Source: Gammaproteobacteria bacterium (GTDB lineage Bacteria > Pseudomonadota > Gammaproteobacteria > UBA4575). Taken from it: DNA of 64,000 nucleotides. The stretch is from contig OZ244982.1 of the NCBI GenBank assembly GCA_965223115.1, positions 378,577 to 442,576 of the forward strand, read 5' to 3'. This document shows positions 6,550-22,423 of the stretch, one piece after another. The position numbers were made by a program, and so were the translations under genes. The notes beneath the pieces were generated by a model, which saw nothing but the letters and a program-made list of their open reading frames with translations, did no database searches and was not told the DNA's origin. Numbering within the stretch: position 1 is the first letter of the stretch; the number at the start of each line of letters is the position of its first letter.

Positions 6550-8202
6550 TTATGAGCTGTTAATTAAATACCAATTTCGACGCTCATGGGTACCTATATG
6601 AATTGCATTGTAGGTGTTAAAACAGCATTCTAAAGAAGACTCTCTTATTAATAACCAGCGGTTATTTTTTTGTGTCAACCATTGCTTAGCTTCTTTTGCT
6701 TGTTTTTTAATAGGTTTGGAAAATCCAAAGTCCTTAATGCTACGGTCTGTGTACAGCATAAACGCTTCGCGCCAGGCTACAAAGCCTAGCTCTGCATCAT
6801 GTCCTATTATAGATACAGTTTTTTCTACAATATAACGTTCCGACTTGATTTTGTTGAGATTTGGGTAACCCCACCAGCCCATGAGGAACCAATAAGTCAT
6901 AACAAATACGAAAATGCCTATAGCAGAATTACGTTGTCGAGTTAACGCTGCAATTGATAAGCCGATTGTCCCTAAGACTGATATTAATATATATAAGTTA
7001 CTTACTTCATCACTAATATTTTTGCAATCGTAATTTGTGAAATTGCATGCCAGGGGCAAACAAATTAATAAAATTGAAAGTATGATTATTGCAACTAAAG
7101 GGATTAAATTAGCAAATAAAGATTTACGAAACTGTATTAAACCTGCGCTACAGGCAATGACGAAGCCAGGTAATGCTGGAAGTATATAAACACCTCTTTT
7201 CCCAGGCGATAGTGAAAAAAAGACTAAAACAAGCAATACCCAAGCAAGTAAGCTTAATGCTCTGCTGTCTTTATCTATATATTGTTTATACCAGCCAACA
7301 ATTAACCAGGGCAATAAAAGAATTAATGGCATCCAGAGCTGTAATGCTTGCGTAAATAAATACCAAGGTGGTCTTATATGGGTCCAAGAATTAAAATAAC
7401 GAACTTTGGTTTGATGGAAGAGGATATTATCTAGGTAATTGTTCAACTCTATATTACTTGTAAGATATGCATAAATAATAAGTGATCCAAGCCAAAAGCC
7501 TAAAGGGATAATTAAACACCCTGTCGCAAGTCCCCACTGTTGCCAAGTCACTGGTTTTCCTTGTACATATTTCCATTTGAATAACCGTGACAATACATAA
7601 GGTACAATAAATAATAATGGTAGAAAGCCAACACCCTTAGTGAGTGTACCAAGGCCCATAGAAAAAAAAGACAAATAGATCCAGCCTACAGTATGTTGTA
7701 AAAAAAATGTTCTTATTAATCCATACAGCGCTAATGTGGTAAAAAATGTTAGCACCATATCAATTTGAGCTGCTTTGGCCTGTAAACCGAACTGATATGT
7801 GCCTAACAAAGCAATTGCAGCAATGAAAGCCGTTTCTGTTGACCAAAGTTTTCGTGTTATGTCATATACCATGATTAGAACACTAATAGATGCAAGCAAT
7901 GAAGGTATCAGAAAAGCGATATTGATCGAGCCGAAGATTTTGTAAAAGACAGCAATGGCCCACATGAATAATGGTGGTTTATCTGCATATAGCTCAACGC
8001 CACGGTGGGGAACTAGCCAATTTCCGGTTTCAACCATCTGTTTTGCAATCATGGCAAATCGTGGTTCGTCGGGGGTCCACGGATCACGCAACCCTAACCC
8101 TGAACTAATTACAACTACTGCAAATATGATAAGCAGTGCGATTTGTATATTAGGGCTAGCAAGTCGGTGAGATATTGATCTCATCCAAGGATGTAAAAAC
8201 AA
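6550..8202 (-). CDS. ArnT-like glycosyltransferase family 39 (polyprenyl-phosphate-sugar dependent; lipid A/LPS or protein glycosyltransferase)
   Basis: Polytopic membrane protein with N-terminal D-E-P-R-F..IAK.M...G.W.VP....LY.DKPPL..W, which matches the ArnT/PMT DE..(R/Y) periplasmic-loop motif. Confidence 0.8.
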   Translation of the reverse strand: MFLHPWMRSISHRLASPNIQIALLIIFAVVVISSGLGLRDPWTPDEPRFAMIAKQMVETGNWLVPHRGVELYADKPPLFMWAIAVFYKIFGSINIAFLIPSLLASISVLIMVYDITRKLWSTETAFIAAIALLGTYQFGLQAKAAQIDMVLTFFTTLALYGLIRTFFLQHTVGWIYLSFFSMGLGTLTKGVGFLPLLFIVPYVLSRLFKWKYVQGKPVTWQQWGLATGCLIIPLGFWLGSLIIYAYLTSNIELNNYLDNILFHQTKVRYFNSWTHIRPPWYLFTQALQLWMPLILLLPWLIVGWYKQYIDKDSRALSLLAWVLLVLVFFSLSPGKRGVYILPALPGFVIACSAGLIQFRKSLFANLIPLVAIIILSILLICLPLACNFTNYDCKNISDEVSNLYILISVLGTIGLSIAALTRQRNSAIGIFVFVMTYWFLMGWWGYPNLNKIKSERYIVEKTVSIIGHDAELGFVAWREAFMLYTDRSIKDFGFSKPIKKQAKEAKQWLTQKNNRWLLIRESSLECCFNTYNAIHIGTHERRNWYLINSS

Positions 8203-8224
8203 TTTAGCAAAAACTGTGAAATAC

Positions 8225-8512
8225 TTATGTCGGAGCTCGTTCTTTAGTTACGCCATTTATAGAAATAAAGTATAAATTTCTTGCGTAAATAAATATGCCA
8301 GTAAGTTGTCCTAAGATGAATACTGGGTCCATTTTATGGATGGCATAAGCTAGCAAAACTATTCCACCAAAAATACTGAAATACCAAAAGGAAACAGGTA
8401 TTACACTTTGTTTTTTGCGTTCGCTAGTGAGCCATTGAATTAAAAATCGCATTGAAAATAATGTTTGACCGGAAAAACCTATAGCAAGCCAAAGTACTTC
8501 ATAATTTTCCAT
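8225..8512 (-). CDS. Lipid-A-disaccharide synthase N-terminal domain (LAB_N) small membrane protein
   Basis: GQ.LF..RF.IQW..SE.KK.SV.P..FW..S..GG..LL.YAI...DPVFILGQ matches the remembered LAB_N pattern. It abuts the GT2 stop codon (8512/8513). Confidence 0.7.
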   Translation of the reverse strand: MENYEVLWLAIGFSGQTLFSMRFLIQWLTSERKKQSVIPVSFWYFSIFGGIVLLAYAIHKMDPVFILGQLTGIFIYARNLYFISINGVTKERAPT

Positions 8513-9241
8513 TTATATTTTTTCCTCTAGGGGGCGCATAGTTCTTTTACGAAGCCAGTACACCCCAAATAAATCAATGACTCCGACATATAGCCGGTCT
8601 AATGTCCCATATTTTGAAAATCCTGCATTTCTATGACGATGATCTACAGCTACAAACTCTACATTTCCTCCCTGCATACTAAATAATGCGGGTAAGAAAC
8701 GATGCATATGATCAAACTGAGGTAGGGATAAGTAGGTTTGACGATGAAACAATTTGAGACCACATCCAGTATCTATGGCATCATCTTTAAGAATAGCTTT
8801 TCTTACTGTATTCGCAATGCGTGAACTTAATCTTTTAATAATTGAGTCCCGTCTTTTATTGCGAACCCCGGATATCAATAATGGAACGTCTTCATTTATT
8901 CGGTCACCTAAATGATTGAGCATAGAAATAATATCGGCTGGGTTATTTTGTCCATCTGCATCTAATGTAATTACCCATTTCGTCGTCGCATGCTTTATGC
9001 CAATACTGATTGCAGCACTTTGGCCATAGTTTTTATTCAATCTCAGTATTTCAAGAAGACACGGGTTTGTAGATGCCACGCTTTTTAGCTCATTAACGGT
9101 ATCATCTGTACTTCCATCATCTACAAAAATAATTACATAATCGCAGTAATTATTAAGGCTATTTTTAATTTCTGTAATCAATGGTCTAATGTTAGCTGCC
9201 TCATTAAATGTTGGCACAATAATCGAAATTTTCATGCACAT
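8513..9241 (-). CDS. Glycosyltransferase family 2, polyprenyl-phosphate glycosyltransferase (ArnC/GtrB/DPM1-like)
   Basis: ISIIVPTFNE...FVDDGSTD.T...DADGQN..DI motifs (DxD). The second ATG at 9235 has better SD spacing, so the start is uncertain by 6 nt. Confidence 0.85.
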   Translation of the reverse strand: MCMKISIIVPTFNEAANIRPLITEIKNSLNNYCDYVIIFVDDGSTDDTVNELKSVASTNPCLLEILRLNKNYGQSAAISIGIKHATTKWVITLDADGQNNPADIISMLNHLGDRINEDVPLLISGVRNKRRDSIIKRLSSRIANTVRKAILKDDAIDTGCGLKLFHRQTYLSLPQFDHMHRFLPALFSMQGGNVEFVAVDHRHRNAGFSKYGTLDRLYVGVIDLFGVYWLRKRTMRPLEEKI

Positions 9242-9460
9242 TGTTCCTGTATCTCTGCGATATCATTAAAACCCCATATATAAATAATTTGATTCAAGTT
9301 AGATTAGAAGTTTAATGAACATGTTTTCTGTTAAGACAAACGAATTGCTAATATAAATAGATGAGGTTCGTAACTGACACAAATGACTCAGTTATAATCT
9401 ATGAGCTACATATTAAAAAAGCCTGAGAAAAAGTGTAATTAAGTTATCTGTATACAGGTA

Positions 9461-9496
9461 TAGACATATGACTAGTAACGCTCAGTCATATGTCTA
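9461..9496. repeat. Perfect hairpin/inverted repeat TAGACATATGACT-N10-AGTCATATGTCTA (copy 2 of the same 13-mer family)
   Basis: Read directly from the sequence. The 13-nt arms are perfect. It lies 5' of the GT2 gene, and the 17-mer AGTCAYATGTCTAATAA is shared with 6446-6462. Confidence 0.75.
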
Positions 9497-9747
9497 ATAA
9501 CAGAATTTTATTCAATTATTCACAAACTTATACTTTGTATAGCATAATTTTAGTTAAGTTAATATTATGATCATATGAATTTTAAATTTAAAAAAATACG
9601 TTCAACGCAGTTGGAGTAATTATTGTAGCTCTAGAGTGGTCTATGTTCAGGCTTGAAAATTTATCCTTGGTACTTTCAGTTTAGGTAATTAGGATATGGG
9701 CTAATTTCATATAATAATTTGTAAGTTAAGCAATAAAATGTTTTTAA

Positions 9748-10134
9748 TTGCTGTATCAACATAAAAAACCTGCCGCCCTATATGCCAAGTGTATCCTCTC
9801 AATTACCGCTTTTGTAATCTTATTAATGTGGATAATTCAACCCTACATGCGTAACAAAGCAAGCGTAATGCCACATGAATACTATGACTATGGAATGAGT
9901 TGTTTGCAGCACTTTATGCAAGTAACAAATAAACATAATTATAAATTGATGAATGCTTATGCAAAAACTGTTTTAAGTGTAAATGAAATAGTATTGATAC
10001 AAGTAAAAAACGTAAGTGATGGGACAAAGATACAAATAAAATGTACCTATGAAAATAAAAAACTTACTGCTCTATATGCAAATAATAATAAAATTGCGCT
10101 TACGCTTAATAGATCAATGTTATTGAGTAAATAA
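9748..10134 (+). CDS. Hypothetical small membrane-anchored protein
   Basis: ORF only. It has a TTG start, one hydrophobic segment and no recognisable motif, and sits in an AT-rich accessory context. Confidence 0.35.
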   Translation: MLYQHKKPAALYAKCILSITAFVILLMWIIQPYMRNKASVMPHEYYDYGMSCLQHFMQVTNKHNYKLMNAYAKTVLSVNEIVLIQVKNVSDGTKIQIKCTYENKKLTALYANNNKIALTLNRSMLLSK

Positions 10135-10332
10135 AAATTTATAATTTATAAAAATACTGATAAAAACTTAATTATTTTAAGCTAATGCCTTTGTGTTGAT
10201 AATTTATTTAAAGTAGTTAATGAACGACATTATTTCCTAGTTTAATGAAATTTTATATTTATAAAAACTTAACTTGACTAGTACTTTATAATTCATGCAA
10301 TATGCTAAAACGACAATATAGTTGGGGCTATC

Positions 10333-13041
10333 ATGGTTGGGTGTTACACGGTTTCAAGTAAAAAATTTGTAACATTATTTTTCGTCTTATCACTTTTTGC
10401 TTTTTGTATCTTGCCACCAAATGCTTTTGCTGCAAGTTATGAATTTGAAGCAGATCTGATGATTGAGGACAGTGATGGGACCAGTTCACAAACTAAAAAT
10501 GATACTGCAGCCAGTAGTGGCCAGTATTTTTTATATAATAGTAATGCAGTTGATGAGTTTGTTACCTTTTCGATCCCGGTCAATCCCAAAGGGGTTTATA
10601 GCTTGGATCTTCAATATCACCTCAGCCAATACCGTGGTACGTTTATCGTCGAAGTAGCAGATGAGCTGCTAGGTACTTATACGCAAATTGGAACAATGGA
10701 CACCATCGTGAGTAGTGGAAGTAGTTTCCCTACCTTGTCTATGTCAACTACATTTCTTACAGCGGGGACGAAATACCTGCGTTTTAAAGCTACAGGAGCG
10801 GGCTCTGCCGGGAATGAAAAGATGGGCCTAGATAAAATTGATGTCGTCAAAACTGCCGATATTGCTGGTCCAGCAGAAAGGCAAGCAACAACATTCAACA
10901 GCAATACAGCGGGTGGTGGGATTAGTGTTAATGAGCCTTCTAATACAGCGCAAGGTGATTTATTAGTTGCGGTACAGGTTAACAACAAGTCAAGTGTTCC
11001 GAATCTAAATAGTGGTTGGACAAATATTCAGTCAGGTGGAAATGGTGCCAATCGGCAACGTGTTTCCTACATAGTGCGAGGTTCTAGTGCACCGGACCTT
11101 ACTTTTCCATGTGGACAATCTACCCATCCTTGTACGGTAAGTGTCACTCGTTATACGGGGGTAGACACGACGAATCCAATTCATGTTTCAGCTTTGCAAG
11201 GTGATGATGATACAAGTGACACCACAGTAACTTGTCCTTCAGTTACGACGACTGTTGGTAACACACTTGTGCAGTATTATGAGACGGATCGCAAGAATGC
11301 TGGAGCGACGAGTTTTGCAACGGCAACCGTTGCGGAAGATATAAGTCCTTTGTCGGGGCAATCTATTACGCTAGGGGAAAAGACACAGGTCACTGCAGGG
11401 GCAACGGGAGCAGAACTTGCTACAAATACCGGCTCGGGTGCTGTGATGAATTGCACTACAGTGGCGATTACACCAACTGCTTCGAGTGGGAGTAACAATC
11501 CACCTACGGTAATGAATCCGGGTAGTCTGATGGATACGGAAGGTGACAGTGTAAGTTTACAGATTCAAGCTAGCGATCCGGATGCGGGTGACAGTTTGAC
11601 GTACAGCGCAACGGATTTACCGATTGGATTAAGTATTGATTCTAGCACAGGATTAATTAGTGGAACGGCCAGTACAGCGGACACCTATAACACGGTTATT
11701 ACAGTAGCTGATGGGAATGGAGGGGGTGATAGTGCCTCCTTTACCTGGACAGTGAATGAGAATGTCGTTGCTGGCACTCCAGATTTCTATGTGGCGACAA
11801 CAGGTTCAGATTCAAATAGTGGTTCACAAACTGCGCCACTCAAAACCTTGTCCAAGGCTGTCCAGCTAGCTTCAAATGGCGACATCATCAAGATGGAAGT
11901 GGGAGAATATGATTTAGGAAGCTCAGCGCTTACTATTTCTAAAAATCTTACAATAGTTGGAGTAGTTCCTGATGAAACTATATTAACGGGCAAAACAATT
12001 GATGTAGATACCGCGGTTGAGTTTTATAACTTAGGTTTTGATGATTTTAGTGCTCGTCAAGCCATTACTATTATTGGTAATAACGGCGATACCATTGATG
12101 GATTTCACGTTGAAAACTGCCATTTCACTGCTATGCGCGGTGGTATCAGGATGGATAACTTTGAGGGTAGTTTTATAAACGCTACGGTTAAGAACTCGCT
12201 GTTTAAAGATCTTACTCATACTGGTAAATCTGTTGTCGGAGTTTCTTTTGCTCACCAATCTAACAATGACGTAAAAGATATCTACATCATTAATAATAAT
12301 TTTGATAATTTAGATTCAACAAATAGTGGAGCTAGTGCGATTCGTGTAGGAGATAATTCTTCCCGTGACAATACGACAAATATTCATATTGAAGACAATG
12401 ATATAAAAAATATTCATGCTAGTTGTGTGGATGATGATGGGGATGGAGAATATCCTCAAGCACATGGCATCAAAGTGTTTGGCGAATATGTAGATGTTCT
12501 CCGTAATACTGTAAAGGACCTAAATGTTTGTCTTGATCATGAAGCAATTAATTTAAAGGCAAGTTATTCTCAAATTATTGATAATACTGTTCATAATGGT
12601 GGAGCTGTGAGCCAGGAAGGAGATATTCTTATCAAAGCAACATCTCCAGATATAAATGTTAACAATCTCATTAAGGATAACACCATTACTAATGATCTAG
12701 CCTATAGTCAAAGTCAATCTCGATGGCGTCTAGCCAATGGCATTAATATTTATGGAGAGTCCATAATTCGCAATAATACTATTAGCAAGTATAACTGTAG
12801 ATCAGGAATTCATAGTAATGGGCAACAAGGTCAGAACGTTACCATAGATGATAATACGGTAGATTTATATGGTTGCCTATATGGAATTTCTCCTCGTAAC
12901 AATGCCAATCCCGCCGTAATCACAGTAGAAGATAACACTATCAGATTTGACTCTACAGACGATGAAGTAGATGCTATCAATACGCAAGGTTCAGCAACTT
13001 ATAATATAAATAACAATACGATTTGCTTTAGTTGTTTGTAG
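10333..13041 (+). CDS. Secreted/surface multidomain protein: signal peptide, CBM-like beta-sandwich, unknown domain, cadherin/Ig-like (He_PIG-type) domain, right-handed parallel beta-helix (DUF1565/pectate-lyase-like)
   Basis: The signal peptide ends at NAFA-AS. NNPPTV..PG......GDSVSLQIQASDPDAGDSLTYSATDLPIGLSIDSSTGLISGT resembles a putative-Ig/dystroglycan-type cadherin repeat. FYVATTGSDSNSGSQTAPLKTLSKAV..A..GD.I is a typical DUF1565 beta-helix N-cap, followed by N/I/D-rich PbH1-like repeats. Confidence 0.75.
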   Translation: MVGCYTVSSKKFVTLFFVLSLFAFCILPPNAFAASYEFEADLMIEDSDGTSSQTKNDTAASSGQYFLYNSNAVDEFVTFSIPVNPKGVYSLDLQYHLSQYRGTFIVEVADELLGTYTQIGTMDTIVSSGSSFPTLSMSTTFLTAGTKYLRFKATGAGSAGNEKMGLDKIDVVKTADIAGPAERQATTFNSNTAGGGISVNEPSNTAQGDLLVAVQVNNKSSVPNLNSGWTNIQSGGNGANRQRVSYIVRGSSAPDLTFPCGQSTHPCTVSVTRYTGVDTTNPIHVSALQGDDDTSDTTVTCPSVTTTVGNTLVQYYETDRKNAGATSFATATVAEDISPLSGQSITLGEKTQVTAGATGAELATNTGSGAVMNCTTVAITPTASSGSNNPPTVMNPGSLMDTEGDSVSLQIQASDPDAGDSLTYSATDLPIGLSIDSSTGLISGTASTADTYNTVITVADGNGGGDSASFTWTVNENVVAGTPDFYVATTGSDSNSGSQTAPLKTLSKAVQLASNGDIIKMEVGEYDLGSSALTISKNLTIVGVVPDETILTGKTIDVDTAVEFYNLGFDDFSARQAITIIGNNGDTIDGFHVENCHFTAMRGGIRMDNFEGSFINATVKNSLFKDLTHTGKSVVGVSFAHQSNNDVKDIYIINNNFDNLDSTNSGASAIRVGDNSSRDNTTNIHIEDNDIKNIHASCVDDDGDGEYPQAHGIKVFGEYVDVLRNTVKDLNVCLDHEAINLKASYSQIIDNTVHNGGAVSQEGDILIKATSPDINVNNLIKDNTITNDLAYSQSQSRWRLANGINIYGESIIRNNTISKYNCRSGIHSNGQQGQNVTIDDNTVDLYGCLYGISPRNNANPAVITVEDNTIRFDSTDDEVDAINTQGSATYNINNNTICFSCL

Positions 13042-15346: not shown

Positions 15347-17377
15347 GTGACGGATAATTTTCAAATTGACACCAAGTTTGCACCTGCAGGGGACCAACCT
15401 GGTGCAATCAATGCACTCATTGAGGGCCTAAATGATGGTTTGGCCCACCAAACCCTATTGGGTGTCACCGGCTCAGGCAAAACTTTCACTATTGCCAATG
15501 TCATCGAGCAGGTACAGCGACCGACTATTATTTTGGCTCCAAATAAAACGCTGGCAGCGCAGCTATATGGTGAGATGAAAGATTTTTTCCCCAGAAATGC
15601 TGTGGAGTATTTCGTTTCTTACTATGACTACTATCAACCTGAAGCCTATGTGCCGTCCAGTGACACTTTTATAGAAAAGGATGCCTCGGTAAATGAACAT
15701 ATAGAGCAAATGCGTTTGTCGGCAACCAAAGCCTTATTTGAGCGCCCCGATACCATCATCGTGGCGACCGTTTCAGCTATATATGGTCTGGGTGACCCCA
15801 AAGCCTATCTTGGTATGGTTATGCACTTGGATCGTGGTGATCGAGTCGATCAGCGTAAATTATTAAGAAGGCTTGCAGAACTGCAATATAGCCGTAACGA
15901 TTTTGAGTTACGTCGTGGCACCTTTCGTGTGCACGGTGAGGTGATTGATGTACATCCTGCCGAGTCGGAGCGTGAGGGAATTCGTATAGAGTTATTTGAT
16001 GATGAGATCGAAAACTTAAGTTATTTTGATCCCTTGACAGGAGAGCTCATCCGTAAAGTTCCTCGGTTAACCATTTATCCCAAAACGCACTATGTAACGC
16101 CACGTGAAATTTTATTGAATGCAATAGAACAAATTAAAGAAGAACTAAAAGAACGTCTTGAAGAATTAAATACAGCCAATCGCTTGGTAGAAGCACAAAG
16201 GTTAGAACAGCGCACTAGGTTTGATTTGGAGATGATTCAAGAGATTGGCTATTGTGCCGGCATTGAAAACTACTCACGTTATTTATCGGGCCGTGCTGCA
16301 GGTGAGCCGCCTCCTTGTCTTTTAGACTACTTACCCAATAATGCACTGATGGTAATGGATGAAAGCCATGTGTCCGTTCCACAATTTGGTGGCATGTACA
16401 AAGGCGATCGTTCACGTAAAGAAACACTGGTTGAATATGGCTTTAGATTGCCATCGGCATTGGATAACCGACCTCTAAAGTTTGAAGAGTTTGAAGCCCT
16501 TGCGCCACAAATGATCTATGTTTCAGCAACACCGGGTCCTTATGAGGCGGAAAAATCTGACGCTGTAGCAGAACAAGTCGTACGCCCAACAGGATTGGTG
16601 GACCCAGAAATTGAAGTACGACCTGTAGCCTCTCAAGTAGACGACTTACTTTCTGAAATCAATGAACGTGTCGAATTGGGTGAACGTGTGTTGGTGACTA
16701 CGCTTACCAAACGTATGGCTGAAGATCTCACTGAATATTTAGCCGATCATAATGTGCGTGTGCGTTATCTACATTCAGATATCGATACAGTTGAGCGAGT
16801 AGAAATAATAAGAGGATTACGTAAAGCAGACTTTGATGTGTTAGTTGGAATTAATTTATTGCGTGAGGGATTAGATATTCCCGAAGTTTCTTTGGTTGCA
16901 ATTCTGGATGCCGACAAAGAAGGTTTTCTGCGCTCAGAACGGTCGCTTATTCAGACTGTAGGGCGTGCAGCGAGGCACCTTAATGGGAAAGCGATTATGT
17001 ATGCAGATCAAATTACTGGATCTATGCAACGTGCTATCCAAGAAACCGAGCGTAGACGTGAGAAGCAGCTTGTCTTTAACAAAGAACATGGCATCACACC
17101 GAAAGGAATTAAAAAGAAAGTTGCAGACATTATGGAAGGTGCGCGTAAATTACCTTACGAATATGATTTGGGTAAAACGCGTGCCAGAGTGGCAGAAGAT
17201 GTCATTGAATATTCACGCATGAGCCCTGAACATGGCATGAAAAAGGTCAAACAGCTCGAACAACAAATGTATGAACATGCTAAGAATCTTGAATTTGAAG
17301 AAGCTGCGAAGATAAGAGATGAAATCATCCGCTTAAAAGATATTATCTTAGGTAAACCTGAGATGAAGGCGAGTTGA
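15347..17377 (+). CDS. uvrB: Excinuclease ABC subunit B
   Basis: Near-identical blocks to E. coli UvrB ([75 protein letters not shown]) and a C-terminal UVR domain. GTG start. Confidence 0.97.
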
Positions 17378-17459
17378 CTATTGTCTAATTTGGATTGACT
17401 GTCCCAAGAAATAAGGGATTTAAAAGCTTATATTATCTAGTTGTATTCATTCAGTTAAA

Positions 17460-17477
17460 GGGGTATTATAATACCCC
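17460..17477. promoter_or_regulatory. Perfect 18-bp palindrome GGGGTATTATAATACCCC (candidate operator overlapping a TATAAT -10 box)
   Basis: Read directly from the sequence. It lies 10 nt upstream of the ATG of the wHTH-nucleotidyltransferase gene and has no spacer, so it looks like a protein-binding site rather than a hairpin. Confidence 0.5.
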
Positions 17478-17486
17478 AATTACTGT

Positions 17487-18059
17487 ATGAATGTATTTAT
17501 GGCTACTTTAGACCATATCTTTAATAAAACGCAGCGCCGTCTGATGAGCTTGCTGTTTATGAATCCAGATAAATCATTCTATACCAATGAGCTTATACAA
17601 CTTATTGGTACCGGTACTAGTACAGTCACAAATGAACTTAAGCAATTTAGAGAGTCTGGAATTCTTGCAATTGAAAAAAAAGGAAATCAAATTCATTACC
17701 AAGTAAATGTGAATAGTCCGATTTACCCAGAACTAAAGAATCTTGTAAAGAAAACGTTTGGTTTGACAGAGTTATTCAAAGAAGCGTTGTCTCCTGTGCG
17801 AGATAAAATTAATAAAGCATTTATTTATGGGTCTTTTGCAAGTGGCACGGAAAATGCGCAAAGCGATATTGATTTAATGATTGTCACAGATCAGCTTTCA
17901 TGGGAGCAAGTTATTGATCATATTGATGGTTTAGATGAAGAGATAATGCGCAATATCAATCCAACTATTTATAGTACAAAAGAATTTAACGAAAAATTAG
18001 ATCATGATCATTATTTCATTAGTAAAGTTATGAGTCGTCCGCAAATTGAATTGATTTAA
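17487..18059 (+). CDS. Winged-helix (ArsR-like) plus minimal nucleotidyltransferase (MNT) fusion protein; putative antitoxin/regulator of an MNT-HEPN-type pair
   Basis: The N-terminal wHTH reads ...YTNELIQLIGTGTSTVTNELKQFRESGIL...G. The pol-beta NTase signature is YGSFASGTENAQSDIDLMIV (GS-x9,10-DxD). Confidence 0.75.
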   Translation: MNVFMATLDHIFNKTQRRLMSLLFMNPDKSFYTNELIQLIGTGTSTVTNELKQFRESGILAIEKKGNQIHYQVNVNSPIYPELKNLVKKTFGLTELFKEALSPVRDKINKAFIYGSFASGTENAQSDIDLMIVTDQLSWEQVIDHIDGLDEEIMRNINPTIYSTKEFNEKLDHDHYFISKVMSRPQIELI

Positions 18060-18484
18060 TGAGCGACAATTTAAAAAATTTATCCAAGTTGAACCCACCT
18101 CGGTTATATCGAGAATCTAGTTTCGAAGAAGAAGTAGATAATTATATCCAAAGTGGCACAGAACGATTAAACGATGCAAAAAACACCAGCTTAAGTTTAA
18201 ACAGTCGCTTTACACTTGCGTACGATGCTTGTTTTTCATTTGCTTATGGCGCACTTAGAAGGAACCATTATCGTGCGAACAAAAATGTGCAAGGGCACCG
18301 AATTACAGTTATTCAAACCCTTGAACATACGCTTGATATAGATAAGAGGAAATGTGTTGTAGTCAGTAATGCACATATAAAACGAAATGGTATGGAATAT
18401 GAAGGATATGCAGAGATTAGTGAAACTCTCGTTGATGAGTTAATTGAAATTGCTGAATTAGTTAAAAGTAAACTTAAGCGTTGA
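18059..18484 (+). CDS. HEPN-like all-helical protein, partner of the upstream nucleotidyltransferase
   Basis: It overlaps the upstream stop by 1 nt (TAATG). Size, helical character and A.D....A..AL.......H.... / ...H.KRN..EY pattern resemble HEPN partners of MNTs. No clean Rx4-6H motif was found. Confidence 0.45.
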   Translation: MSDNLKNLSKLNPPRLYRESSFEEEVDNYIQSGTERLNDAKNTSLSLNSRFTLAYDACFSFAYGALRRNHYRANKNVQGHRITVIQTLEHTLDIDKRKCVVVSNAHIKRNGMEYEGYAEISETLVDELIEIAELVKSKLKR

Positions 18485-18651
18485 TTCACTATGTTATTTG
18501 ATCAGGATAAAGTAAGGAATCATGTTAATGAAGTAGCTATGCTTCTAAGTATGAGTGCTTGGTTGTGAGTTTTTTTAATAGAGCAAGATAATATAGATAA
18601 TTAGCAGGTATCGAATTTTTCTGTTCTATGCTAATTTCATACATTGATACT

Positions 18652-18728
<77 letters not shown>

Positions 18729-18873
18729 GTTTCCCTTTTGAAGTCAATAATTTAAATAACCTTAAACTTATTGCTGAGATAAACTTAAGATAAACTCGGT
18801 TTGTCTCAAACTGAAATTACTATTAAGTCCGAAAATGAACCTTTTTGTATTTCAATGACTTGTTTTCTTAAAT

Positions 18874-18937
18874 GCGTAGCACAGACTGAAATATATTAGA
18901 GCGCTACCCTGAAATATAATAGTAGGTCTAATTCGCT
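18874..18937 (+). pseudogene. Degenerate tRNA-Val copy (5' two-thirds, with an insertion in the D-loop)
   Basis: GCGTAGC.CAG...TTAGAGCGCTACC.TGA.AT...GTAGGTC..AATTCG aligns with the intact tRNA-Val at 18656-18712, including an exact 13-mer TTAGAGCGCTACC. It has no foldable acceptor or T-arm. Confidence 0.55.
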
Positions 18938-19104
18938 TAACAAACTGTTCAATAATGTAAGATTTGTAATTCGTATGTATTGGTGTTTTGAATTTAAATG
19001 ACACTTATGATCACAAAGTAGAGTAAATAAATATCGTGATGGAAATTATAGTCGTGTAAATTTCTTTATTTATTAAGACGTATATGTAAAAAATTAAAAA
19101 TAGT

Positions 19105-19962
19105 ATGTATCCATTAGAGCTCTTAAGGTTGTTTCCACCTTTTCCTAAAACAAACATGATATTTGTGGCTATGAGCTTTGACGATGAGTTCAAACCGCGT
19201 TGGGAAAATGTTTTAGAGCCAGCAGCAAAAGAGATAATTGTTAATGATGAAAAACTATTTTCACACAGAGTTGATTTATCTGATAAAAACGATGCAATTT
19301 TGACAGAAATTGTAAGAAACATTTCTGAATGTAAGTTGTTCATTGCTGATATATCAACAGTAGGGTATCTGCCAATTAATGCTACACAAAATAAGCCTAT
19401 TAGAAACTCAAATGTTTTGTATGAAATTGGTTTGGCTCATGCAAGTAGATTGCCAGAAGAAGTTATCTTGTTAAGGTCGGATGATGATCAATTAGATTTT
19501 GATATATCGGGTGTTAGAGTGCATAAGTACAATCCCAATAATGTTAAAGAGTCAATAGAGTTGGTTAAAAAACTAATTCTGAGTGCATTAAAGTCAATTG
19601 ATGATAGAAAACGGATTTCAGTTGAAAATACTTCGAAATTACTAGATGTCACGATGTACTATTTGCTTCATATAGCAATTCAAGATATTGCTCATCCTAC
19701 AGGTGATAACAGTGGTGGATTACTTAGAGCTGCCGATCATGTATTGGCTATAAATAGAATGCTAACTTTGGGGTTGTTAGAAACTAGCTTTAAAGAACTT
19801 ACACCGGAGAATGTTAATACTCACTTGAGTGATTCTGCGACGTACCGGATTACTCCATTTGGCAGGGCTGTCTTGAGTAGAGTTAGAGAGAAAAATAATT
19901 TTTCAGATGCTATCACTAAATTCCTAGAGTCAGATGAAGGTAGAAAAGTATTAGCTAAATAA
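19105..19962 (+). CDS. Orphan protein: N-terminal TIR-like (Cap12/PF10137-type) or nucleoside deoxyribosyltransferase-like Rossmannoid domain plus C-terminal helical/wHTH-like domain
   Basis: MIFVAMSFDDEF (strand 1), ..KLFIADIST.., ..IRNSNVLYEIGLAHASRLPEEVILL.. and ..LDFDISGVRVHKY follow the remembered order of motifs fAivLlTPDD / RARQNVifElGyf.g.LGr.rV..L / E.PSD..Gv.Y in TIR-like effector domains. The C-terminus (..LGLLETSF....ATYRITPFGRAVL) resembles a wHTH wing. The start could instead be ATG 19156. Confidence 0.45.
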   Translation: MYPLELLRLFPPFPKTNMIFVAMSFDDEFKPRWENVLEPAAKEIIVNDEKLFSHRVDLSDKNDAILTEIVRNISECKLFIADISTVGYLPINATQNKPIRNSNVLYEIGLAHASRLPEEVILLRSDDDQLDFDISGVRVHKYNPNNVKESIELVKKLILSALKSIDDRKRISVENTSKLLDVTMYYLLHIAIQDIAHPTGDNSGGLLRAADHVLAINRMLTLGLLETSFKELTPENVNTHLSDSATYRITPFGRAVLSRVREKNNFSDAITKFLESDEGRKVLAK

Positions 19963-20133
19963 CTAGTTGAAAGATTGGACAGTAAATCGGTTGATTAGAA
20001 ATCTTAGAAGCATGCTCGATATTCTGATTGAGTTAAAACGTCACAAAAGGGCACAAAAAGGCTCAAAGTTCCCCATAGTGTTTTAGATGAAAGTTGTTAG
20101 AATACAAATTCTTGCGCGATTCCAAGCGCAATT

Positions 20134-20178
20134 TTGACATGGTAGAGGTCAGCAGTTCGAATCTGCTCGTGCCTACCA
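20134..20178 (+). pseudogene. Displaced 3' half of a tRNA-Val(GAC) gene (anticodon loop to CCA)
   Basis: TTGACATGGTAGAGGTC is identical to 18684-18700. It is followed by a self-complementary but different T-arm (AGCAG-TTCGAAT-CTGCT) and CGTGCCTACCA. No matching 5' acceptor strand lies upstream. Confidence 0.75.
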
Positions 20179-20509
20179 ATAATGACTATTTATATTAATT
20201 AGTTTATAAAGACGCATTCTAAAAACATGTGGCCCTTGGTATAGGTCACCACTGGAGTAGAGCCCGCATATAACACCAGACCACCTCGATCAAATATGCT
20301 CCATGGATTAATATAGAAAACATGCAAGTTTTTACTGTAAACAATTTAATTTTCAACAAAGTTGTTCGGTTTTTGGCTGGATCTAATTTCTCTTGGCTTG
20401 CTTTTCCTTTTAGCCATAGCTACAGCTATGCCTATCAGTCCAAAGCATCGCAAAAAAAAATGATCTCTCACCCAAAATCCCGAACTCTGGTATTACATGC
20501 GGACTGAAC

Positions 20510-22423
20510 ATGCCGATTATTACCCTTCCTGATGGAACTCAAAAAGAATTTGCTCATCCGGTAACTATTCAACAAGTTGCAGAATCGATTGGTCCTGGGT
20601 TAGCCAAAGCCACAATTGCAGGCCGCATTAATGGTCAACTTGCAGATGCCTGTGTGGATATCACGGATGATGCCAATGTGGAAATTGTTACCAATAAAGA
20701 TCCGGATGGGGTCGATATTATTCGCCATTCTTTTGCACATTTAATGGGGCATGCCATTAAGCAGCTTTATCCCACTGCAAAAATGGCGATCGGTCCGGTA
20801 ATTGAAAATGGCTTTTATTACGATATTGAGTATGAACGCCCGTTTACGCCAGAAGATTTAGAAGCAATTGAAAAGCGCATGTCGGAATTGATTAAGCAAG
20901 ATTACGATGTGATTCGCGAAGTGGTCAGTCGTGAAAAAGCGGTAGATACCTTCAAAGATCGTCATGAAGACTATAAGGTGGAGATTGCTTCAGAAATTCC
21001 CGATGATGAAATTATTGCGCTGTATCATCATCAAGAATATACCGATATGTGTCGTGGGCCGCATGTACCCAACACGCGTCATTTACGAGCTTTTAAATTG
21101 ACTAAGCTTGCCGGAGCATATTGGCGCGGTGATTCCAATAATAAAATGTTGCAACGCATCTATGGCACAGCCTGGGCAGACAAAAAACAACTCAAAGCGT
21201 ATTTAACGCAACTTGAAGAAGCTGAAAAGCGTGATCATCGAAAACTTGGTAAGCAAATGGACTTGTTTCATTTTCAAGATGAGGCGCCAGGTATGGTGTT
21301 TTGGCATGATCGTGGCTTTACGCTTTATAAGATTATTGAAACCTACATACGCGATAAAATTCGTGCACACGGTTACCAGGAAGTATTAACGCCTCAAGTT
21401 TTAGATCGCAAACTTTGGGAGAAATCAGGTCACTGGGATAAATTTGGCGACATGATTTTTGCTACCCAATCTGAGAACCGGGAATATGCCATTAAACCCA
21501 TGAACTGCCCTGGGCATGTGCAAATCTATAATCAAGGTCTTAAAAGTTATCGTGATTTGCCGTTAAAACTTTCTGAGTTTGGTTTAGTGCATCGCAATGA
21601 ACCTTCGGGAACGTTACATGGTTTGATGCGTGGTCGACGATTTGTACAAGATGATGCTCATATCTTTTGTACGCGTGAGCAGCTGCAAAAAGAAGTGGCA
21701 GAGCTAATCAAACTAACTTTTGAGGTGTATAACGATTTTGGATTTAAAGAAATCGAGCTGGCATTATCTACTCGACCAGAGCAAAGAGTAGGTGAAGATA
21801 GTTTGTGGGATGAGGCCGAAGAGGCTTTGGCCATGGCATTTAAAAACCAAGGACTTGAATATAAGTTACAGCCTGGAGAAGGCGCTTTTTATGGACCGAA
21901 GATCGAATTTACTTTACGTGATAGTATCGGTAGGGCGTGGCAATGTGGCACCATACAAGTCGATTTCTCCATGCCGGGTCGTCTGGATGCCACCTATGTA
22001 GCTGAGGATGGCAGCCGGCAGGTGCCGGTGATGATTCACCGTGCCATTTTGGGTTCGCTCGAGCGTTTTATTGGGATTCTGATTGAAAACTATGCGGGTG
22101 ATTTGCCCTTTTGGCTGGCTCCGATACAGGCGGTTTTGCTCAATATTACCGATCGACAAGCAGAATATGTCGAATCTGTGCAAGAAACGCTTAAAAATCA
22201 AGGGTTCAGGGTCATTTCTGACTTGAGAAATGAGAAGATTGGCTTTAAGATTCGCGAGCACACGCTTGCCCATATACCTTATATGTTAGTGGCGGGCGAT
22301 CGTGAAGTCACCGCGAATCAGTTGGCCGTTCGTACGCGTAATGGTAAAGACCTAGGATCGATGGATGTGAGTGCTGTCACTCAAATGTTCATCGATGAAA
22401 GCGTGTGTCGCGGTCATCGTTGA
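20510..22423 (+). CDS. thrS: Threonine--tRNA ligase
   Basis: N-terminal TGS domain (MPIITLPDG...), HSFAH editing motif, class II core (FRNE-like [19 protein letters not shown]), and thrS-infC-rpmI-rplT synteny. Confidence 0.97.

Follow-up and report, generated by a model that had tools for sequence, protein, structure and literature searches.

Can a TIR-like catalytic domain of the kind used in bacterial immunity work alone, wired to a sensor within its own short chain? TIR NADases, enzymes that hydrolyse nicotinamide adenine dinucleotide (NAD+), are central immune effectors in bacteria, plants and animals, and in bacteria the well-understood ones of the CAP12/Pycsar type depend for their activation on a nucleotide signal from a partner enzyme. 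The question is raised by a gene in a 64,000-nt stretch of gammaproteobacterial DNA (contig OZ244982.1 of assembly GCA_965223115.1, positions 378,577 to 442,576; hereafter the window), which encodes a protein of 285 amino acids (aa) joining a TIR-like domain to a C-terminal domain with a MarR-like fold. An initial annotation of the DNA had proposed it as a single-gene, nucleotide-targeting defence effector. By analogy with known TIR effectors, the protein may be a self-contained sensor-effector that would hydrolyse NAD+ on a trigger, a reading whose chances we judge to be about evenly balanced.

The open reading frame (ORF) occupies positions 19105..19962 of the window on the + strand, from an ATG start through the stop codon, exactly as first called, and its homologues and their conservation exclude a chance ORF. 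A search of a 5.8-billion-protein set returned 235 relatives at E<=1e-3, the top ones at E=1e-127 to 1e-50 with full-length alignments; the nearest (E=3.7e-127) is 69% identical over 100% of the length. The 120 matches listed, of 235, are mostly ~270-300 aa long, and none of them has a functional name. When 1.84 billion cluster representatives (50% identity clusters) were searched exhaustively with a profile, 318 clusters matched at E<=1e-30 and 794 clusters at E<=1e-10, and at least 385 relatives are encoded in GTDB species genomes, scanned at one genome per species. The distribution is patchy across many bacterial phyla, Nitrospira and Planctomycetota among the hosts, and several archaeal lineages, such as Methanosarcina, ANME-2 and Promethearchaeota. 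Conservation was read from an alignment of 230 full-length members with 30-69% identity to the query. All the motifs quoted in the initial annotation are found in the order given there, namely FVAMSF (residues 20-25), LFIADIS (78-84), IRNSNVLYEIGLAHA (99-113), LDFDISGVRVHKY (130-142) and ATYRITPFGRAVL (245-257), and their residues are conserved at 98-100%. The same annotation knew of no described system with this architecture; likewise, no description of a protein combining TIR with MarR or another winged helix-turn-helix (wHTH) was found in PADLOC, NCBIfam or the literature searched, although absence there is no proof. The two-domain family is unnamed, wholly unannotated and widespread.

Residues 19-143 (19159..19533, + strand) make up the TIR-like catalytic domain, of CAP12/Pycsar type. 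The single meaningful Pfam match of the protein is PF10137 (CAP12/Pycsar effector TIR; E=1.5e-4), in which residues 19-143 align to profile positions 2-118 of 119. The same model is matched at E<0.01 by 22 of 71 relatives, with a best value of 1e-5, and one relative, P0031, has a precomputed PF10137 annotation. When the protein was compared with PDB sequences using phmmer, the sole match was the Cap12/SfSTING chain 7un8 (E=0.044), over residues 101-168 including the catalytic helix. An AlphaFold2 (AF2) model of the full protein, built on a 71-sequence alignment, has a predicted local distance difference test (pLDDT) score of 88.2 and a predicted template modelling (pTM) score of 0.77. Foldseek against the PDB ranked TIR-STING first (7un8 at 1.7e-5, and 9lmq), followed by a tier composed of nucleoside deoxyribosyltransferases (NDTs; 6qai, 2a0k), the CMP N-glycosidase BcmB (4jen), ThsB and the Bacillus TIR protein BcTIR. 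The best match among the predicted viral structures of BFVD is annotated as a CAP12/Pycsar TIR protein (6e-9), with NDTs and a hydrolase of CMP and hydroxymethyl-CMP (hmCMP) next. Pfam, phmmer, Foldseek and BFVD agree on the TIR-like Rossmannoid domain that had been recognized from motifs, of the Cap12/PF10137 type with NDTs close behind. DUF4062/NIR was also considered as the family of this domain and was ruled out, as a Pfam match is absent.

A beta-hairpin inserted in the CC loop is distinctive for CAP12/Pycsar TIR domains (10.64898/2026.04.30.722052; PMC9402430). The AF2 model of the window protein has this insertion: DSSP assigns strands to residues 87-90 and 96-99, giving a predicted hairpin at residues 87-99 (19363..19401, + strand) that sits between betaC (78-82) and alphaC (102-114).

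The active site can be compared with that of SfSTING, in which F6, W33, F37 and L47 stack against the nicotinamide, the ribose and phosphates are held in place by S10, R78 and N80, E84 serves as the catalytic residue, and D110 comes from the partner TIR to complete the site in trans (PMC9402430). The phmmer alignment equates N103, E107 and D133 of the window protein with N80, E84 and D110. Both that alignment and conservation mark the motif R100-N-S-N103-V-L-Y106-E107-I-G109 (19402..19431, + strand), within which the codon of E107, the predicted catalytic Glu, lies at 19423-19425; the D133 codon is at 19501..19503, also on the + strand. E107, N103, Y106, G109, R115 and D126 are 100% conserved, and D133 and D82 are conserved at 99%. 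The Glu of YEIG, which the initial annotation had singled out for mutation, is the residue that aligns with E84. F20 and S24, in a stretch that lay outside the alignment, are spaced like F6 and S10 of SfSTING and may be their counterparts, judging by sequence spacing. We conclude that the N-terminal domain either belongs distantly to the CAP12/Pycsar TIR clade or is a sister of it, with its composite active site intact.

The remainder of the protein, residues 146-285 (19540..19959, + strand), consists of a long N-terminal helix, a wHTH with a beta-wing, and C-terminal helices. Modelled by itself this domain reaches a pLDDT of 91.3, and its best 50 Foldseek matches in the PDB are all members of the MarR family, including AdcR, HucR, MarR, MexR, SlyA and ST1710 (probability 0.85-1.0, and >=0.97 in 48 of the 50; TM 0.33-0.52; E ~7e-3), in alignments of 112-150 columns for a query of 140 residues. 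The modelled domain shows the MarR-like fold in full, with the long terminal helices, which in MarR proteins form the dimer interface. The wHTH-like C-terminus of the initial annotation is borne out and sharpened in this way, and Foldseek points to TIR-STING first for the N-terminal domain and to MarR regulators for the separately modelled C-terminal one. The regulators MarR (1JGS), AdcR (5JLS), HucR (8YLM) and ST1710 (3GFI) share with it the fold over the whole domain, the dimerisation helices and the beta-wing; a Y-R-x-T-x-F-G sequence at the junction of the wing and alpha5 resembles the MarR 'LT..G' motif. Unlike these regulators, the window domain is fused to an enzyme, has a loop in place of alpha3 and an acidic insertion in the wing, lacks conserved basic residues of DNA contact, and has no Pfam match to the family: MarR models gave nothing at E<=1 with the whole protein or at E<=0.1 with the isolated domain, for which the sole Pfam match was a weak one to wHTH-PRTase_assc (0.049). 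A sequence profile of the domain gave chance-level matches only against PDB sequences.

Ahead of both domains stands an N-terminal peptide, MYPLELLRLFPPFPKTN (residues 1-17; 19105..19155, + strand), which is modelled at pLDDT 61-78. Its pattern, MYP..L.LFPPFPR, is specific to the family, near-invariant and among the best-conserved parts of the protein. The peptide is missing from 13% of the sequences, and these appear to be start-codon miscalls; the Rubrivivax protein, for example, is annotated from M23, yet tblastn matches query residues 1-284 in its genome. Neither Cap12 nor the phage sister family described below has the peptide. Since amoebal TirC has a reported N-terminal helix, a guess is that the peptide might serve as an autoinhibitory or interface element. 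The DNA of codons 3-8 of the peptide also contains an 18-nt near-palindrome, CCATTAGAGCTCTTAAGG (19111-19128), which the coding sequence probably produces incidentally.

The gene sits in a 1.45-kb AT-rich islet (18729..20178, + strand; GC 0.326), delimited by repeats, composition and an empty site, at the 3' end of an intact tRNA-Val(GAC) gene (18652..18728, + strand; ARAGORN, and Rfam tRNA at 69.6 bits), the integration target on the attL side. The attR-like end of the islet (20125..20178, + strand) is a direct repeat of the 3' half of the tRNA with 81% identity and a 17-nt exact core, TTGACATGGTAGAGGTC; a repeat search and blastn define the pair as 54 nt long, at 18675-18728 and 20125-20178. 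A further 20-nt fragment of the D/anticodon-arm region of tRNA-Val (18896..18915, + strand; 90% identity in the repeat search) was probably left behind when an earlier element integrated or decayed. With the intact tRNA, the 54-nt copy and this short piece, the gene is indeed enclosed by tRNA-Val sequences, as the initial annotation had it. The corresponding site is empty in a related genome, where locus L172 (7027-7643), set against window positions 17378-20509, reads uvrB, 215 nt, tRNA-Val(GAC), 325 nt, thrS. The UvrB proteins of the two fall in the same 90% cluster, their uvrB and thrS DNA is 75-80% identical, and their tRNA-Val genes are 98.8% identical. Both the TIR-MarR gene and a neighbouring MNT/HEPN pair are missing from that uvrB-tRNA-Val-thrS locus. 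Because this site is empty and the conserved thrS leader resumes at window position 20208, just past the repeat end at 20178, the gene is the sole cargo of an islet inserted at the tRNA 3' end.

Within the islet there is no integrase or recombinase and no other non-overlapping ORF of >=60 aa, and the islet is either a remnant or mobilised in trans. The gene itself is intact, recently acquired, mobile and accessory. It is AT-rich as had been claimed (GC 0.343 and GC at third codon positions 0.266, against 0.43-0.44 and 0.36-0.38 for uvrB and thrS). It lies 376 nt from tRNA-Val and 547 nt from thrS and is therefore monocistronic, and nothing resembling a Shine-Dalgarno sequence precedes it in AAAAATTAAAAATAGT-ATG, both in keeping with the initial annotation. 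A promoter/terminator scan found no sigma-70-like promoter just upstream on the + strand, although a consensus scan is weak in AT-rich DNA.

A stand-alone character is also seen in the relatives. We compared 74 genome loci with 489 neighbours within four genes of a family member, and a conserved partner gene was ruled out: in all-against-all clustering of the neighbours the largest shared cluster covers 3 loci, and the clusters of this size are recombinases or transposases. Across the 132 immediate neighbours and the 126 second ones, Pfam families recur three times at most (HTH_3, phage integrase, rve). The median intergenic gaps are 116 and 109 nt. The gene stands alone, and with no conserved neighbour, the empty site in the related genome and an integron cassette in one relative, the single-gene and mobile nature proposed for it holds. 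The cassette is at locus L010, where an ORF at 10001-10840 lies by itself between attC-like palindromes at 9907-9999 and 10865-10949, with another at 11910-11976 (the attC sites were judged by eye) and an integron integrase upstream on the opposite strand (383 bits against TIGR02249, cut-off 265; region 6851-12000). At locus L074 (8820-10480) an integron integrase (469.5 bits against TIGR02249) is directly upstream of the family gene. Family members occur as chromosomal integron cassettes, and integron cassettes are normally single, self-sufficient genes. As a general vehicle the integron was ruled out, since its integrase is present in just 2-3 of 74 loci, and adjacency to a tRNA did not hold as a general feature either (any tRNA in 8 of 60 loci).

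By analogy with TIR-STING, a working model can be proposed. In TIR-STING, ligand binding leads to a filament in which D110 completes the neighbouring active site, and NAD+ is hydrolysed (PMC9402430). The N-terminal domain of the window protein would be a CAP12/Pycsar-type TIR N-glycosidase with E107 on alphaC as catalytic residue and an NAD+ pocket lined by N103 and probably also by R100, F20 and S24. D133 would reach into the neighbouring TIR's active site, so that packing of TIR on TIR would be needed for activity, as in TIR-STING. The MarR-like domain would keep the protein dimeric and autoinhibited until a trigger, be it a nucleic acid, a protein of the phage or a small ligand bound in the MarR pocket, led to higher-order assembly and switched the TIR domains on. 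Hydrolysis of NAD+ would then stop the growth of the infected cell (abortive infection). The gene travels alone, in the 1.45-kb tRNA-Val islet here and in an integron cassette and prophage- or ICE-like elements (ICE, integrative and conjugative element) in its relatives. A fused sensor fits such a protein, because an NADase without a conserved immunity gene must stay off until triggered. NAD+ as the substrate, activation by oligomerisation and an anti-phage role are all drawn from analogy; a role in phage defence is plausible, and rests mainly on what TIR proteins of this clade are known to do, on the patchy distribution of the family and on the gene being mobile and accessory.

TIR-STING (Cap12; SfSTING 7UN8, 9LMQ) is the closest known system, being the best structural and sequence match of the N-terminal domain. 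Common to both are the catalytic Glu, the Asp acting in trans, the hairpin in the CC loop and the R/N-x-N-V-x-[FY]-E-x-G helix, and they have the same layout of N-terminal TIR, long helix and C-terminal dimeric sensor in ~290-300 aa. The window protein differs in that its sensor is MarR-like rather than STING and no CD-NTase or signal-making gene is linked to it; identity is ~13% in the structural alignment, and the window family has the extra MYP..LFPPFPR peptide. Other TIR NADases with a fused sensor or partner-binding domain are PycTIR/PucTIR (Pycsar), TIR-SAVED (CBASS), Cat1 (CARF-TIR, type III CRISPR), TIR-APAZ (SPARTA) and SpbK. According to the literature these are activated by assembly, and PF10137 is shared by the Pycsar and CAP12 members. 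All except SpbK need a partner gene, either to produce a nucleotide signal or for guide binding, whereas SpbK uses a different N-terminal domain to sense a protein of the phage, and none of the set is known to have a MarR-like domain. The cyclase matches in the neighbourhoods of the 74 loci are ordinary signalling proteins at single loci. Because no CD-NTase or cyclase is linked and no neighbour is conserved, the window gene is not a component of CBASS (cyclic-oligonucleotide-based anti-phage signalling system) or Pycsar (pyrimidine cyclase system for anti-phage resistance).

Several observations weigh against the reading as a MarR-sensing TIR NADase of defence. Against PF10137 the protein scores 22.2 bits, short of the 24.7 bits set as gathering cut-off, and the family profile recovered no TIR chain among PDB sequences, chance-level matches being all that the domain-profile scans returned (tautomerases, PIG-T). 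With the Pfam threshold narrowly missed and no TIR chain retrieved by the profile, the TIR assignment leans on structure prediction and motif conservation. The conserved R100 stands one position before the equivalent of SfSTING R78. No PADLOC-DB v2.0.0 family matches the window protein at E<=1, and the NCBIfam models give no match to it. The proteins of the phage sister family prefer PF05014 (Nuc_deoxyrib_tr; 1e-5, sub-threshold) to PF10137 (2e-3). In the C-terminal domain, helix alpha3 of MarR is replaced by a loop in the domain model, the recognition helix has one conserved basic residue, R218 (78%), the wing is not basic and in fact carries the acidic insertion, and the median net charge is -2. 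Given that charge and the single conserved basic residue of the recognition helix, classical DNA binding is doubtful, and the domain may serve dimerisation and the sensing of a ligand or protein rather than of DNA. The initial annotation had suggested that a wHTH could sense nucleic acid or ligand; the fold stands, while the suggestion of nucleic-acid sensing is weakened by the missing basic residues.

The genomic contexts also count here, as the neighbourhoods of the relatives are heterogeneous across the 74 loci; many are housekeeping, some of them purely so by appearance, and defence genes are sporadic. In Rubrivivax, putAbiC adjoins the family gene; one locus has a HicB-like antitoxin and another a type III restriction-modification (R-M) system together with ICE or plasmid genes. 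Scanned against PADLOC and Pfam as pseudo-alignments, which gives family counts only and a rough lower bound, the first and second neighbours on each side yielded PADLOC matches to R-M subunits, DrmD, mad5, DRT, a GajB-like helicase, dGTPase and PDC candidates. With ~12 of 258 neighbours matching defence models, again a rough lower bound, the excess of defence genes is modest at best. Homologues of a defence gene had been expected beside known defence genes rather than in housekeeping surroundings; the survey finds some defence genes, housekeeping surroundings are common and enrichment is not demonstrated, which leaves the expectation neither contradicted nor secured. The defence-islet context drawn from the window fares in the same divided way: it holds in the window itself, with two insertions at one tRNA and one PADLOC candidate, and extends to the relatives only in some cases.

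Two single loci may be recorded beside this survey. In an Omnitrophota metagenome-assembled genome (MAG), a 250-aa member lies 716 nt downstream of tRNA-Val(GAC), as in the window (L061, 230-1774); no repeat of that tRNA-Val was detected at this locus, and the adjacency could be a coincidence or a shared attachment site. In a Planctomycetota MAG (L086, 1-11358), a member lies in a run of hypothetical genes flanked by a DNA methylase and a GpJ-like tail-fibre protein, an arrangement suggestive of prophage carriage.

Phages encode a sister family of the window protein. The window protein matches phrog_3634, a family of unassigned function, at E=4.7e-13, and hhalign of the window family against it gives, for the TIR-like core, a probability of 99.6% and E=5e-24. 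Relatives of ~285 aa and 24-37% identity are encoded on at least 148 IMG/VR contigs and by the isolate Dorea phage DO134P1 (OP172779.1, 14277-15146; L171, 5965-6834); true members of the window family are found on just two IMG/VR contigs. Among the sister loci (L093-L170; in L094, for example, the gene is at 9980-10837), the gene is directly upstream of terS in 59 of 80 and downstream of a DUF1492-like gene, resembling late-gene activators, in 49 of 80. This arrangement is seen in many Caudoviricetes contigs, a large share of them from metagenome 3300045988. The proteins resemble the window protein in length and in having identical RVD, DSI, RNPNVxYELG and FDVxG motifs. They differ from it in having no MarR-like domain, no hairpin in the CC loop and no MYP motif, and from the window family as a whole in being phage-encoded, at a fixed position upstream of terS. 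An extended version of the working model, which we advance tentatively and consider rather improbable in its entirety, would make the family a minimal single-chain immune sensor-effector of bacteria and archaea: the MarR-like domain would sense a phage ligand, DNA or protein, the TIR NADase domains would assemble in a filament-like way with no signalling partner, the N-terminal peptide would be an autoinhibitory latch, and phrog_3634 would be either a form of this weapon that prophages carry or a counter-measure that arose from it.

The sister family also raises the strongest alternative. Because it fits the NDT model better, the substrate could be a nucleotide and not NAD+. The window protein would then be an N-glycosidase like NDTs, MilB and BcmB, acting on nucleotides or nucleosides and depleting or editing their pool in defence, metabolism or salvage; candidate substrates include (d)NMPs, CMP or hmCMP, modified bases and possibly the bases of nucleic acids. 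The enzymes of this PF05014 superfamily have the Rossmannoid fold and a catalytic Glu at the equivalent helix start, the NDTs 6qai and 2a0k and BcmB 4jen form the second tier of Foldseek matches, and the BFVD matches include NDTs and the CMP/hmCMP hydrolase, the latter aligned over 288 columns; the preference of the phage proteins, 1e-5 for PF05014 against 2e-3 for PF10137, points the same way. The window protein, in contrast, matches PF10137 and has no PF05014 match at E<=1. Its pocket motif is TIR-patterned, R-N-x-N-V-x-Y-E-x-G matching the R-D-N-V-V-F-E-F-G of SfSTING with an Asn at -4, and the equivalent of D110 and the CC-loop hairpin are features of CAP12 TIR domains, whereas NDTs have neither the hairpin nor a C-terminal sensor. 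The NDT motif, D-x-G-T-x-x-E, is missing from the window protein. There is also a precedent in DUF4062/NIR, a defence domain described as CMP-hydrolase-like that turned out to be an NADase (10.64898/2026.09.04.749371). On these grounds we regard a nucleotide-directed enzyme as unlikely.

A one-component transcription regulator is a poorer explanation, to which we attach a low probability. Its N-terminal domain would bind a nucleotide-like ligand without turnover and its MarR-like domain would bind DNA and so control its own gene or others; a Rossmannoid sensor joined to a wHTH is a common regulator layout, the MarR fold is complete with its dimerisation helices, and the pTM of 0.77 suggests a fixed arrangement of the two domains. 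Against a regulator, the 74 loci contain no conserved neighbouring target gene, wing and recognition helix have no conserved basic residues in a domain that is net acidic, and MarR Pfam models find nothing at the thresholds given above. The invariance of the Glu, the Asn and the trans-acting Asp is as expected of an enzyme, and it would be unusual for an integron cassette or a 1.45-kb islet to carry nothing but a regulator.

The window copy could also be a decaying passenger of a degraded tRNA-integrating element, with no current function. The islet without an integrase, the additional 20-nt tRNA fragment suggestive of decay, and the lack of a Shine-Dalgarno sequence and of a sigma-70-like promoter just upstream on the + strand would all suit a passenger. 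The protein, though, is encoded by a full-length ORF from the MYP start of the family, keeps every invariant residue and is 69% identical to the nearest relative over 100% of the length, and the promoter scan has little force in AT-rich DNA; we think this explanation improbable. That the protein is a TIR effector aimed at a eukaryotic host, acting on TLR adaptors or host NAD+, is very improbable indeed, for although the source is low in GC and bacterial TIR proteins acting on eukaryotic hosts exist in some pathogens, the family is found in free-living environmental bacteria and archaea (Nitrospira, Planctomycetota, Methanosarcina, ANME) and none of the loci showed a secretion signal or a link to a secretion system.

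The NADase reading is a variation on a well-known theme. If the window protein is active in this way, the same catalytic module would be wired to a MarR-type sensor and would work alone in fewer than 300 residues. It would represent a new sensing principle in TIR immunity, in a compact module transferable by integron cassette or tRNA islet, and would offer a handle on how a MarR-like fold senses outside transcription. Because the family is both widespread (at least 385 species genomes, 318 clusters) and unannotated, many genes would gain an annotation from one experiment. The phage sister family beside terminase genes is likewise uncharacterised.

The surroundings of the islet, from uvrB to thrS (15347-22423), hold a second element. 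On the other side of the tRNA, at 17487-18484, is the MNT/HEPN pair, which matches the PADLOC candidate PDC-M05A/B at E=1.4e-68 and 1.4e-37 and confirms the MNT/HEPN-like neighbour reported initially. The MNT protein (190 aa, with an N-terminal ArsR-like HTH) and the HEPN protein (141 aa) overlap by one base; the module matches the Polbeta and NTP_transf_2 families of Pfam and has a GC of 0.33-0.35. The pair is a second, independent insertion, and the gap between uvrB and thrS, which gained ~2.5 kb in the two, is an integration hotspot. Beyond tRNA, the Rfam scan returned just two matches, both to HPnc0260 on the minus strand and below its gathering score of 59 (18690-18826, 49.2 bits; 20140-20277, 40.1 bits). 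They cover the two copies of the tRNA 3' half and ~100 nt downstream of each, and probably reflect tRNA-like sequence. Among ~15 billion proteins, the ThrS, MNT and HEPN of the window are singletons at 90% identity and the one relative of UvrB is metagenomic, which points to a poorly sampled, low-GC lineage (window GC 0.379).

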